From assembly GCA_951406725.2 (NCBI GenBank), contig OX597834.1, positions 20,646,001 to 20,710,000 of the forward strand: a stretch of DNA of 64,000 bases. Reading direction: 5' to 3'. The translations under genes were made by a program, and so were the position numbers. The stretch comes from Octopus vulgaris. Taxonomy: Eukaryota. The notes under the pieces are model-generated. The model had not been told where the DNA came from, did not search any database, and was given only the letters and a program-made list of their open reading frames with translations. The stretch's first letter is position 1; each line of letters begins with the position of its first letter. Of the stretch, positions 9,017 to 50,025 are shown one piece after another.

Positions 9017-9222
9017 CATGTTGATTCGCTAGCCTCTGCACGCATTTTTTTTCTCTCCTTGTTTCTTTCTGTTTCTTTTCTGTGTATCTTTCTGTTGAAG
9101 AGCGTAGGCTCGAAACATAAAAGACTTGTTTTATTTATATTCCTGAGCACCATACTAATACAATTGTTTGTTTGTATTCCACCTGCCTTCGTTTTTTGTT
9201 TATTTTCATAAAGCTTCCCGTT
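9017..9222 (+). mobile_element. Penelope-LTR-like short element (family H1) with hammerhead-like motif at 9087-9124
   Basis: TCTTT-CTGTTGA-A-GAGC(GTAG)GCTC-GAAA-CAT-A-AAAGA; homologous to 30256-30468 and 23349-23505; TA runs on both sides. Confidence 0.65.
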
Positions 9223-9281
9223 ATATATATATATACATACATACATGTATGTTTACATTATATATGCATGTATGTATATAT

Positions 9282-9664
9282 GTGGAGGTGCAATAGCCCA
9301 GTGGTTAGGGCAGCGGACTCATGGTCGTAGGATCACAGTTTCGATTCCCAGATTAGACATTGTGAGTGTTTATTGAGTGAAAACACCTAAACCTCCACTA
9401 GGCTTTGGCAGAGGGTGGTGGCGGACCCTACTGTATTCTTTCACCACAACTTTCTCTCATTCTTTCTTCCTATTTCTGTTGTACCTGTATTGCAAAAGGC
9501 CAGCCCTGTCACACTCTGTGTCATGCTGAATCTCCCCAAGAACTACGTTAAGGGCACATTTGTCTGTGGAGTGCTCAGCCACTTGCACGTTTATTTCATG
9601 AGCAGGCTGTTCTGTTGATCGGATCAACTGAAATCCTCGTCGTCATAACTGATGGAGTGCCACG
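9282..9664 (+). mobile_element. tRNA-derived SINE family E with tail E1
   Basis: A-box TAGCCCAGTGG, B-box GTTTCGATTCC; body shared with 10364-10652, tail shared with 17080-17392 and 29617-29890. Confidence 0.8.
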
Positions 9665-9691
9665 TTATGTGTGTGCGTGTGTGTATGTATA

Positions 9692-9820
9692 TCACCTTGA
9701 CCGACCAGTTCGTCAGGTGTCCATTTGACACCACTGGTCACAGCACGCTGTCCACTACTCTCTGGATCTCAGCACGCTGTCCACTCCTCCCTGGTCACAG
9801 CACATTGTCCACTCCACTCT
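9692..9820 (-). mobile_element. 3' end related to SINE tail E2, with three ~28-bp tandem repeats
   Basis: TCACCTTGACCGACCAG..CTGGTCACA resembles 10364-10412; CTGGTCACAGCACGCTGTCCACT-like unit three times. Confidence 0.5.
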
Positions 9821-9860
9821 GAAGAACATGTATATATATATATGCCTTTTATACATATAT

Positions 9861-45410: not shown

Positions 45411-46009
45411 CCACAGTCTTGCACCAGATCTTTTCCTAGAATAAACAAATGATAATAATAATAATAATAATAATGACGACGACGACGACGACGACGACGA
45501 TAATAATAATAATAATAATAACTGGACAGATTTTGCTTTAGTATGAAATTTGAATCAATCACATAAAGATCTTAGTTTAATGAAGTGGATGGCTATTTTC
45601 TTAATATTGCTCTTTTTTGTGTATTTATTTTATTTTATCTAGTTTCAGCTCACGAGCTGTGGCCATGCTGGGGCACTGCCATTTATATTTATATGTATGT
45701 GTGTGAGTATGTGTGTTTGTGTATACATATATATATAAATATATATATATATACATACATATATACGCACATACATACACATGTACATGCATAGGTCTAT
45801 ATTTTGTTTTTTTATCTAAGAGTTTAATCAGTGATTCTATGAAAGTACTGCCAAAAAAAAAAAAACAGATAGAAATATAAAAAGAAAAAGGAAAGCAAAT
45901 ATAAGAAAGATGATCCAGATGCATCTTGATGGCAAAAAAAAAATACCTGAAAACAAAAAAAATTACAAATACATAAATAAATAAATAAATAAATAAATAG
46001 ATAAATAGG

Positions 46010-46800
46010 TGATGATGATGATGATGATGTTGATGATGATGATTTTGTTGAAGGTGATGACAACAATGTTGGTGATGGTGGGGTTGGTGGTGATAGTGGT
46101 AATGGTGGTGGTGGTGGTGGTAGTGGTGGTGGTAGTGGTGGTGGTGCAACAGGTGATGATGGTGATGATAATGGTAATACTGATGTTGGTGGTGATGCTG
46201 TAACCTGATTGTGGTACCGCAGATAGTCGTTAGAATGGTGATGCAGTGGTGGTGGTGGTTGCGGTGGCTGTGGTGCTGGTGGCCATGATGATGGTGGTGG
46301 TGGTTGCGGTGGCTGTGGTGCTGGTGGCCATGATGATGGTGGAGGAGGTAGTGGAGATGAGGACGAAATTTGAAATTTCAGAATTAGCATTTCTTAGAAC
46401 ATATTCCAGTCGTGGATGAAAAAAAGGAAAAGCAAGAGAAACAAATAAAAATAAACAAAATTGTAAACAATAATAGCAAAAAAATGATATCTTCACCACA
46501 AGTGTAAATTATGATATGATAATTAATACAACACCAACAACAACACCAACTATGATAACAATAATGATGTCTTTTATAATAATAATATTAATAATAATAA
46601 TAATAATAATAATAATATTAATAATAATAATAATAATAATAATAATAATAATAATAATAATAATAATAATAATAATAATGATAATGATAGTAATATTAAT
46701 AATGATAATAATAATAATATTAATAATGATGATGATGATAGTAATAATGATAGTAATAATAATAATAATAATGATAATAATATGATTGTAATAATAATAA
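46010..46800. repeat. (GAT)n/(GGT)n array with a 60-bp duplication, then (AAT)n array
   Basis: Direct reading. Confidence 0.9.
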
Positions 46801-47169
46801 CAACAGCAATGGAAATGACTATTTTTATTATAAAAATACATATTTATTCTTTAAAGAACGATTTCTGATGAGATTTGGGGGGGGATGGTGGATTTTCTTT
46901 TGTTTTTGCTTTCTGTTATTCATTTTATTTATTTTTACATATTTATTTACCTCAGTGATTTAAATAACTCTAATGGTTTATAGATCAGACACTTTGATTA
47001 TGTCTCAAACAGTTAGTTTATGTTGTCAGTGTTGGCTGGCTGACTGGCTGGCTAGCTGGTTGGTTGTGATGATGATGATGATGATGATGGCAGGGCTGCT
47101 GGTAGTGTTGAAATGATGAGGACGATAGTTCTTGGTTTCCATAGCTAGATGTCCTTCCTAAAATTAAAA

Positions 47170-48730
47170 ACACTTTACAGAGTGTACTGGGTGCTTTTTT
47201 TGTTTTTTTCTTTGTTTTCTCATGGCACCTGGCATCAGCACAAAAGAGGTATCATGTTCTCAGTAGGACCAGCGAGTCCTCTCATACATACATCTAACCG
47301 AGTGAAGTGGTTGCTATATATTACAGCACCTACACCAGTGAGGTCGGCCTGTCCTTGACAACACTAAAAGATTCTCTCGACTCCCTACCTTACTGAGTGT
47401 TTTGAGTACTTTTCCTGCAGCACTGGTGAGGTCACCCTGTCCACAGTAACACTAAAAGATTCTTTCATGGTTCCCCCACCTACACTTGTTTTTTTTTTTG
47501 CATTTTCCTTCAATTATATAAGTTTATGATCTATTTTATGTTACAGTTTTTTAAATTTCTTTCCTTTACTTCTTTCATTTTCTGCCCATCACTCTTCCAT
47601 TAAGCAAAAACCTCATTAGTGGATGCTTTTTTATATGGCACAAATACTAGTTAAGTAGCCCTATCCTCAAGGACACTAAAAGTTTCTCTCGACCTCATAA
47701 TACTGAGTGCACTAAATGCTTTTTAACATGGCACCAGCAATAGTGATATAATAATGAAATTATGGTATACAGTGCTCTGGTGCACCACAACTTGTCAAAA
47801 GTGTGTATAAAGTATATGCAGTAATGTACAAATGTCTGGAAAATGAACAGTGTATGAGTCAGATACATGCTTGCATGTGTATGGAGGGGAGAAAATCAGG
47901 TGTAGTGTTGGCAAATCTCAGAAAGCATGGAAGTTTTGAAGGATGCAGTGCTCCGACAACTAACAACTGATGCCGGCAGTTTGTTCCATGCTTCAGCAAC
48001 TCTTAGCGTGAAAAAATGTTTCTGAAAGTCATGGGAGCTGTGCTGTTTTCTGACTTTGTAAACATGTCCACGGGTGATGTAGCCCTGTCCTCAAGAACAC
48101 TGAAAGCTTCTGTCAATTTTAGATTTTACAAAATGTGCTGAGTGGCACCAACACTAATGAGGTAACCATGTATTCTGTAACACTAAAATATTCTCTCAAC
48201 CTGAGATTTTACAAAGTTCACTGGGTGCTTTTCCATGGCTCATAGGCCTCTGAGCAGGTATTGCCAAGCTTTTGGCAAAATTTGATAAAGATTCTCTGCT
48301 CAGCTTTCACTGTCATAATCAATGCAATGATCACATGCTACACACCTTCCTTCCAAGCACTGCTGTAAACAGTGGAAGTGAGCTAGAACATTGCACTGCA
48401 GAAATTAAGGTCAATCTGTGCCTAGCAGTTTTACACTGCAAGCTTTAGTTTTGTTAATATGGCAATAATCTGCATACTTATTGATCATCCCTCGTATGTA
48501 TGCCACGGAAAGGAACACTGGTCTGTCACAGAATTATTTATTTTTGTCAGGTGTGTGGACTGAAGCAACATGAAGTAAAATGTTTTGCCCAAGACAAGAA
48601 CACACACACCACCTAGTACAGGAGTCACAACAACAATCTTATGATCATGAGTGTAAACCACGAACCTCCGCTTTACAGAGTGCCAAGGGTACTTTTCCAT
48701 GGTTCCTAAATTAGTGAGGCAGCCCTATCT
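47170..48730. repeat. degenerate ~90-105-bp tandem units related to the RTE family C tail
   Basis: Recurrent GTGAGGT..CCCTGTCC..ACACTAAAAG.TTCTCTC..GAGTG..GTGCTTTT..ATGGCAC. Confidence 0.55.
47748..48075 (-). mobile_element. CR1 3' fragment (subfamily with longer 3' UTR)
   Basis: Homologous to 4628-4806 (TRGH..FRKHFFTLRVAEAWNKLP); same terminal stem-loop; GTGAT at both junctions. Confidence 0.85.
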
Positions 48731-49800
48731 ACTTCATGGTTAAAGGCCTTTTGACCCCAGTATCTGCTTGATTTCGAATCTCTTCTCAGAGTAAGTGGCA
48801 TGAATGACCGTATGATGGAGACATGAATATTTGTGCCATGAATGAAAGAGTTAAGTCTTACCAATAAGAAAGATAATGCTTTATAGAATTATAGTGTAAA
48901 CCATGAACCACAAAACACGCACAGTTATTAGGATTCTTACAAATTTTGGTTTAATTCTAATTGAATTATAAGATAGGAAATGGGTTATTGGTTAATAAAC
49001 TACTGATAATTATAAATGCATGCAAGGATGAACTGCATCTAATTAAGAGGATAATAATAGAAAAAATAAAAGAAAAAATGTAAGCAAAAAATGGAAAAAT
49101 GCTGAACAAAATTTGGTAAAATGAAATGAAATGTTGGAATTATTATAATTCAGTAAGTAAATTGATTTTCCTGAAATGGAAATAATTTCAATTAAATTCT
49201 TTTAAAACTTGTGAAATTATATTCTGCAAAGAAAGTGAAAAGAAAATATTTAAAAATCTACTTAGAGATTAAAGTAACATGCATATTTGTGTGAAAGTAT
49301 TAATGATATAGAACGAAATAAAGTAAAATAGATACCAAAAAAATGCACAAACAACAACAGCAACAATAATAAAATTAATAATGATAATAATAACAACAAC
49401 AACAACAACTAGACTTACTACAAGAAGAAAATACATAATTTATTGATATGAATTATTCAATAAAAGACCTAAGTCTGTGACTGGGGTAAAGTGTGTGCTT
49501 TATTATAAGAGAGAAACATACTATGGACACATAATTGAATTTGCTTTGGAAGTTTTTATAATTTCTTGATGAAAATATTAAAATTTCTGAAAATGGTTTA
49601 GCATTGTATTTATATATTTATGTGTGTGTGTGTGTGCATGTGTGTATTTGTTTGTATATCTATGTATATATGTATATGTATGTGTCCAGGTGTGTGTCTA
49701 TTTTATTATTATTTGATTGGTTGTTTTTGTTCTTTTTGTTTCCAGTTTTGATCATATTTTAGTAAAATGATGATCAATGTTCACCTAAGTTCCTGAAGAT

Positions 49801-50025
49801 TCTTATTATTTAACACACTCACCAGTAAAAATTCCACTCATTTATTTATTTTTCCTAAAATTTTCGTTGCATCTTGCAACCTTTTCAATAGTCATTGACT
49901 CTGTCCATTATCCAAGCAGCGTTAAAATTTGGAAAAAGAAATAAGTAAATGAGTGAAAACTTTACCGGTGAGTGTGTTAAATAAGAAGGCACTAAATGAG
50001 AATGCCTCTCCCCTGACACAACAAT
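49801..50025. mobile_element. fold-back element with ~62-bp imperfect inverted arms (49801-49864 / 49924-49989)
   Basis: ATTTAACACACTCACC..GTAAA / TTTACCGGTGAGTGTGTTAAAT; internal hairpin GTTGCA-TCT-TGCAAC; abuts (TA)n. Confidence 0.55.

Follow-up and report, generated by a model that had tools for sequence, protein, structure and literature searches.

A 64,000-nt stretch of contig OX597834.1 (positions 20,646,001 to 20,710,000 of the forward strand; hereafter the window) holds eight short elements without open reading frames (ORFs) in or near TA runs. A preliminary description of this stretch had assigned these elements to at least five unrelated families of non-autonomous, Penelope-type units and had proposed that the hammerhead-like folds of six of them deviate from the canonical CUGANGA core as a rule, by C for U at position 4 (U4C) and by letters other than A at position 6. 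The locus thus raises the question of whether non-canonical hammerhead cores are a property of whole families or the private decay of single copies. The elements prove to be of a known kind, and the result is narrower and firmer than the earlier claim: one abundant family, here called family A, has a fixed U at position 6 of the core (A6U) and a free position 7 (N7).

All eight elements were found at the coordinates given for them and are designated by their starts as E1 (9017), E2 (9861), E3 (23349), E4 (29001), E5 (30256), E6 (34222), E7 (39676) and E8 (49801). The core strings had also been read correctly (CTGTTGA at 9092+ in E1, CTGCGGA at 10239+ in E2, CTGCTGA at 23469- in E3, CCGATGA at 29122- in E4, CCGTCGA at 30336+ in E5 and CCGATGA at 39794+ in E7). 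A strict fold scan of the window, requiring a CYGnnGA core, a hairpin II of at least 3 bp, GAAA, NUH and a stem I of at least 4 bp, and controlled with 60 block shuffles, returned three sites (E1, E4 and E5) against a shuffle mean of 0.07 and a maximum of 1. Allowing AAAA in place of GAAA gave five sites against a shuffle mean of 0.22 and a maximum of 4, with E3 gained; the fifth of these sites, at 17967 on the minus strand, is likely due to chance. The descriptor scan found no complete fold with a CTGANGA core in the window. As anticipated, standard descriptors miss these motifs: there was no Rfam hammerhead match at E<=10 over 29001-30470 (35 matches), and none for the whole window among the matches listed (150 of 409).

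Other parts of the initial picture held for some elements only. Hairpin II, attributed to six copies, is present in E1, E3, E4 and E5 (4 bp each) but not in the copies at 10239 and 39794, where E2 and E7 retain stem I and NUH with a helix II of 1 bp and 2 bp, respectively. The minimal type I features (stems I and II, the extra base 9.1 and G10.1-C11.1) are accordingly found in four of the six motif copies, and these four full-fold copies are not members of unrelated families but constitute one related superfamily. Contact with TA runs is clear at the 3' ends of the elements at 9017, 9861, 23349, 29001, 30256 and 39676, but the element at 34222 meets a TA run on its left side only and that at 49801 lies 37 nt away from one; about 3% of all window positions have a (TA)3+ run starting no more than 6 nt downstream. 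Lastly, the cores are non-canonical in the six cited copies, whereas E6 and E8, which had been set aside as coreless, carry known cores. The copies of family A and their parts are as follows.

9017..9221, plus strand: E1, a family A copy with core CTGTTGA at 9092, identical to the family consensus; its 3' end lies on a TA run.
23349..23515, minus strand: E3, a copy from an older family A subfamily, with core CTGCTGA at 23469.
29001..29213, minus strand: E4, a distant family A relative with core CCGATGA at 29122 and A6 kept.
29197..29242, no strand: a perfect palindrome where the 5' side of E4 meets its flank, of which about 16 nt recur inverted across (TA)6.
30256..30466, plus strand: E5, a family A copy of about 205-210 nt, flanked by TA runs and differing by 2.7% from the letters of the family majority.
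30331..30368, plus strand: motif of E5, with stem I formed by 30331-35 and 30364-68.
30336-42, plus strand: core of E5, with a private C at position 4, the family U at position 6 and a free position 7; the extra A is at 30343.
30344-47 with 30352-55, plus strand: stem II of E5, followed by GAAA at 30356-59.
30359-62, plus strand: helix III of E5, with predicted cleavage after 30363.

E1 and E5 share about 89% identity, and E1 lies 8.2% from the family majority letters. E3 is 76-80% identical over the motif region, and its 5' side adjoins another interspersed repeat at 23519; an alternative register of E3 with a canonical CTGAAGA at 23466 was rejected because it has no helix II. E4 aligns with family A along its length and has the same stem II, while its stem I shows a compensatory change from C-G to G-C; the palindrome at its 5' junction looks as if the TA run had folded back and primed on the target. 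TA runs start 97-109 nt past NUH in E1, E4 and E5, and E3 is similar by eye. A covariance model built from the four copies recovered no additional copy in the window (the next match had E 1.1), and a weak nhmmer match at 17636 (E 0.98) was discarded for having no fold. No tandem repeats of the hammerhead unit were found; all window copies are solitary, with a spacing of 7-21 kb.

To establish the family consensus, public contigs from four runs chosen from 24 were aligned to 30244-30482, with E5 as the reference, at 80% likeness, and letters were listed from 5% of depth. The runs, from three related animals, are X1 and X14 (organism A; X1 may derive from the source sample), X4 (organism B) and X13 (organism E), contributing 12,207 (X1), 10,697 (X4), 3,188 (X13) and 2,680 (X14) contigs for a total of 28,772; X14 is RNA by guess and was not counted as evidence of expression. 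Positions 30455-30482 were skipped in the alignment, so 3'-end junctions are not visible in it. Depth at the core exceeds 0.6 million in every run. Summed depth is not a copy number, but compared with the depth of 27-70 of long single contigs it points to a copy number on the order of tens of thousands, as an order of magnitude only. Agreement is low (0.46-0.58) at the loose ends at 30257-58, which is more consistent with a short unit set in varying flanks than with a common upstream continuation. No spliced or circular joints are listed in X14, although contigs cannot exclude them.

Position 6 (30339) is U, and all other letters stay below 5% in each of the four runs; the proposal that a core without A6 is the norm is thus borne out for the large family of the elements at 9017 and 30256. 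The companion proposal for U4C fails in the same family: T accounts for 99.1, 98.8, 86.9 and 99.9% of depth at position 4 (30337) in X1, X4, X13 and X14, with C plus G at most 0.6, 0.9, 2.5 and 0.07%, so that the C of E5 at 30337 is private or belongs to a minor subfamily. Position 7 (30340), in contrast, which is the single unconstrained position of hammerhead cores, reads C/T/A/G at 49/27/19/5% in X1, 40/27/23/10% in X4, 34/36/4/25% in X13 and 23/52/19/6% in X14. No variant of at least 5% occurs at 30336, 30338, 30339, 30341-59 or 30362-66. At G8 there is no G>A variant matching the variation at N7, which is therefore not simple CpG decay. Position 30361 is G in 86-94% of depth, giving ACGU and GUA, and 30368 is A in 97-99.6%. 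The family majority motif thus comprises a stem I of 4-5 bp, CUGUNGA, an extra A, a stem II of 4 bp, GAAA, a palindromic ACGU helix III and a GUA site, so that GAAA, A15.1-U16.1, the palindromic helix III and NUH are all present in the majority. The stem I letters of E3 (equivalents of 30330-31) are those of the X13 majority, which still has U6, and the C6 and AAAA of E3 are therefore probably private; the AAAA is a G12>A change at a CpG, and no variant of at least 5% is seen there in the aligned contigs.

A long pyrimidine tract (30285-30344) precedes the family A motif. With A at position 7 (4-23% of depth), the core has the form of a textbook 3' splice acceptor. The Drosophila Penelope intron is described as ending at helix I (PMC4209133).

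The argument for selection on the motif rests on N7 and on conservation across subfamilies. Position 7 is the sole place in the element for which three alternative letters are listed. Depth in X13 drops about 200-fold just 3' of the motif, from 1.49 million at 30356-63 to 7,127 at 30380-87, and distant subfamilies therefore keep the motif and not the tail. Over the four window copies, 24 of 35 columns are invariant in the motif against 33 of 127 in the flank (Fisher p 6e-6, for a region chosen post hoc).

The Penelope-like anatomy of these elements was borne out by their TA-abutting 3' ends and by the layout of the motif. Both (TA)n targeting and inverted, 5'-truncated copies are described for Penelope-like elements by Craig et al. 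2021 (PMC8557442), and in the same source Hydra-clade elements, one of them from Octopus, insert in (TA)n and carry their motif about 100 nt from the 3' end. Family A likewise abuts (TA)n, with some 100 nt between its motif and the 3' end, but the Hydra rows of File S2 are all CUGANGA, whereas family A has U6, the ACGU helix III of other clades and, here, no linked ORF. A closer likeness to Hydra-2_aMil of File S2 is seen in E7, with its stem I of CTGT/ACAG and its helix III of ACTC-n-GAGT-A with a central unpaired base. About 125 nt from their 3' ends, Naiad_Obim and Naiad_Ovul (File S5 of PMC8557442) have a CTGTTGA with U6, followed as in a hammerhead by a short hairpin and GAAAC; GAAA is preceded by two additional bases, no stem I is clearly formed, and the likeness is possibly due to chance. 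Compared by eye, the octopus Naiad 3' ends given in that source match none of the eight elements.

Relative to the minimal hammerhead consensus of Cervera & De la Pena 2014 (PMC4209133), CUGANGAH plus a U3-A8 variant, family A resembles minimal type I hammerheads in its short stem I, U-rich 5' flank, extra base after A9 and G10.1-C11.1, as well as in the palindromic C-G that replaces helix III, the NUH and the mostly solitary copies; it differs from them in that the rows compared from the published alignment keep U4, G5 and A6, where the consensus of family A has U6. The U3-A8 form is matched by the core of E8, and UUGAAAA is printed there for a Schistosoma element. Natural variants in which only position 6 or position 4 of the core is changed are on record, namely A6C in phage Bcep176 and U4C in a viroid, with activity that is lowered but real (PMC3088659, PMC7151607). 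As described, however, these are single rare examples with full helices, whereas A6U is the majority state of a very abundant repeat lacking helix III. Poseidon PAc of Anolis (Frangieh et al. 2024, PMC11167929) is a useful model in its AT-rich target and its start of reverse transcription about 100 nt past the motif, but it is autonomous, with a tested ribozyme and a motif that overlaps the start codon, and family A has no ORF. Animal retrozymes of the non-long-terminal-repeat type are, like family A, short non-coding hammerhead repeats tied to Penelope-like elements (PMC7229834; bioRxiv 10.64898/2026.07.22.740005); their tandem arrays, canonical motifs and circular RNAs, as described in these sources, set them apart from the solitary window copies with minimal variant motifs in TA runs.

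In an O. vulgaris annotation (PMC13282606), Penelope-like elements make up 6.83% of the genome and fall into 190 families; its repeat account says nothing of hammerheads. If the window is from that species, finding eight remnants within 64 kb would thus be ordinary. In the literature searched we found no report of an A6U hammerhead in Penelope-like elements, although Lunse et al. 2017 or the work on Terminons may hold A6 variants, and the novelty of the variant is provisional. The family A pattern had no matches in prokaryote genomes and viral contigs. Five metagenomic loci with the U6 motif are GC-rich and without stem I or NUH, and were read as chance.

Taken together, these data lead us to a reading to which we give an even chance: family A is the high-copy, ORF-less 3' unit of a (TA)n-targeting Penelope-like element, and its CUGUNGA hammerhead is predicted to be attenuated, gated or assisted by protein, with selection acting on the fold. 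Copies of family A would be read through from host or tandem transcripts, the GIY-YIG endonuclease of an autonomous partner would nick (TA)n, and the reverse transcriptase (RT) of that partner would copy uncleaved RNA starting about 100 nt downstream of the motif. The copies span the predicted cut, and the templates were therefore uncut or rejoined. Aborted or folded-back complementary DNA (cDNA) may leave the hairpin-shaped scars seen at 39676, 49801 and perhaps 34222. In the RNA, U6 would make it possible for U4-G5-U6 to base-pair with the ACG of helix III; the monomer would then rest as a rod hiding the dimerising palindrome, to be opened by partner RNA or protein. Folding of the majority letters predicts a probability of the G5-C15.2 pair of 0.44-0.98 with U6 against 0.01-0.10 with A6. 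Single changes in CUGA are reported to reduce activity (PMC9901934), and the Poseidon hammerhead is described as cleaving only with its protein, while insertion in vitro needs no cleavage (PMC11167929). A bolder version, which we consider doubtful, holds that A6U converted the hammerhead into a switch that locks itself or into a fold serving protein recognition only. Selection would have kept it over tens of thousands of insertions in several related species, and sister families would have tried out U4C independently.

Several results weigh against the more cautious of these proposals. Variants of at least 5% are few in the element as a whole (28 rows at 24 of 239 places), and the invariance of the core is therefore not special on its own. 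Covariation in the stems amounts to one double change in 10 pairs over four sequences, which 222 of 500 shuffles reach and which is not significant. The 10.6% of depth with A at position 4 in X13 hints at relaxed constraint. Rare variants are lost from contigs, homogeneous subfamilies weigh more heavily in summed depth, and subfamilies with A6 that are less than 80% alike, such as that of E4 (29001), fall outside the alignment. The rod is predicted by folding to lie only 0.2-2.4 kcal/mol below the open form. The motifs of family A do not occur in the consensus files for Naiad, Chlamys and Hydra of PMC8557442, in which line breaks could hide a match. Finally, no relevant Pfam match to an RT or GIY-YIG gene, as expected of endonuclease-bearing elements of the Neptune or Hydra type, was obtained in 147 of 189 nearby frames, a weak test in which one of three control frames gave a sub-threshold RVT_1 match; with no such gene found in linkage, Penelope membership rests on anatomy.

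The remaining elements differ from family A in their cores and in their architecture.

9861..10185, no strand: left part of E2, a fold-back whose 100-nt arms are 84% complementary; it stops short of the motif.
10186..10336, plus strand: right part of E2, with CTGCGGA at 10239, a stem I of 4 bp and a helix II of 1 bp; its 3' end lies on (TA)13.
34222..34612, plus strand: E6, with 82-nt arms (96%) at 34222-34303 and 34531-34612.
39676..39860, plus strand: E7, a fold-back with CCGATGA at 39794 and a helix II of 2 bp.
49801..50025, minus strand: E8, a fold-back with arms at 49802-49870 and 49916-49988.

Inverted arms occur in E2, E6, E7 and E8, and family A has only the 16-nt flank inversion of E4. 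A CTGATGA with no fold around it lies at 10015 on the minus strand of the left part of E2. The CTGAAGA of E6 at 34499 is canonical and its surroundings resemble those of Hydra elements, but neither hairpin II nor a pairing partner for stem I is present. In E7 the helix III reads ACTC-T-GAGT, a pattern with four matches among viral contigs, and the inverted arm ends at stem I (CTGT/ACAG), which suggests that cDNA folded back at stem I. The minus-strand motif of E8 at 49888 reads TTGAAAA, the U3-A8 form, followed by an extra G, a 6-bp hairpin II and GAAA, and continues with a palindromic AATT and a 3-bp stem I. We take E2, E6, E7 and E8 to be the degraded ends of further Penelope-like families; some of them have cores that are ordinary or already published. 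In both E6 and E7 (34531; 39780-39830), the inner end of the inverted arm lies at or beside the putative cleavage site or stem I. A further hammerhead-like remnant lies at 1300-1372 (plus strand), between the halves of an interspersed repeat, with a canonical CTGAAGA at 1312, a 3-bp helix II and GAAA; a tandem duplication of its 5' half follows (CTGAGGA at 1354), and it has no stem I partner. A second degenerate, motif-like stretch before the core of E2 (10200-10235, plus strand) resembles this remnant.

Other accounts of the family A motif and of the wider set of cores have to be weighed against a selected fold. The motif could be a dead relic, in which A6U inactivated the ribozyme of one ancestral master and hitchhiked with its amplification, leaving a motif that now has no role. 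This would accord with a double-mutant scan in which CUGA changes other than the C3-G8 swap give low activity (PMC9901934), with insertion in vitro that does without cleavage (PMC11167929), with the spread of Naiads lacking canonical hammerheads (PMC8557442) and with the U4A fraction of X13. A motif without a role, however, would not lead one to expect all four letters at N7 in each run with none at its neighbours, nor a motif that outlasts its flanks across subfamilies and shows one compensatory change in stem I, and we regard this account as unlikely. We think it quite unlikely that the motif is instead a fully working variant, with the ACGU palindrome forming a dimeric helix III, U6 tolerated or compensated (e.g. 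by choice of metal) and the RNA processed as in other Penelope elements. Canonical minimal hammerheads of the same class already cleave poorly (PMC4209133), U6 is predicted by folding to favour the rod that hides the palindrome, and the window copies are solitary, 7-21 kb apart; these points stand against the intact catalytic G8, G12, A15.1-U16.1 and GUA site of the majority and against the rates reported for A6C hammerheads, of 0.18-0.37 per min in Mn2+ and 0.33 per min in 10 mM Mg2+ (PMC7151607).

The broad radiation originally envisaged, with U4C and non-A6 cores as the norm in five or more unrelated families of the genome, appears very unlikely. The one C4 tested is below 1% in organisms A and B, E2 and E7 have no real hairpin II and look decayed, and E6, E8 and the 1312 remnant carry A6 with U4, even though C4 is found in three of six copies, above what private change of a few percent readily gives, and CCGATGA is common to two unrelated elements. 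A separate alternative concerns only 9861-10185 and 34222-34612, which could be miniature inverted-repeat transposable elements (MITEs), with terminal inverted repeats and a TA target, unrelated to Penelope-like elements. Both have long arms at their two ends with TA just outside, and the arms of E2 exclude the motif; they are single copies, and the TA context hides any duplication. Inverted, 5'-truncated copies are, however, a standard structure of Penelope-like elements (PMC8557442), and the Hydra-like core of E6 starts about 30 nt before its right arm. We lean against a MITE origin, tentatively, and leave the left part of E2 as either a MITE or an inverted Penelope piece.

The window itself is AT-rich (35% GC) and dense in microsatellites and interspersed repeats. 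Several high-copy families resembling short interspersed elements occur throughout and are often halved by TA/CA microsatellites (224-398 with 488-690, 7156-7534 and 16016-16427). Fragments at 4629-5437 and 56240-56953, both on the minus strand, resemble two retrotransposons of the long interspersed type (LINE), and 5090-5434 gives a sub-threshold RVT_1 match.

The function of hammerheads in Penelope-like elements is called unclear by Craig et al. (PMC8557442). A highly successful family that has departed from A6 and is free only at N7 represents a natural experiment on why these elements carry hammerheads at all. Surveys based on CUGANGA, and Rfam, undercount such motifs, possibly by tens of thousands per genome. 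If the bolder proposal of a switch or a protein-recognition fold were true, family A would provide direct natural evidence for selection on shape or gated cleavage rather than on free catalysis, and standard descriptors would be missing a whole class of Penelope hammerheads.

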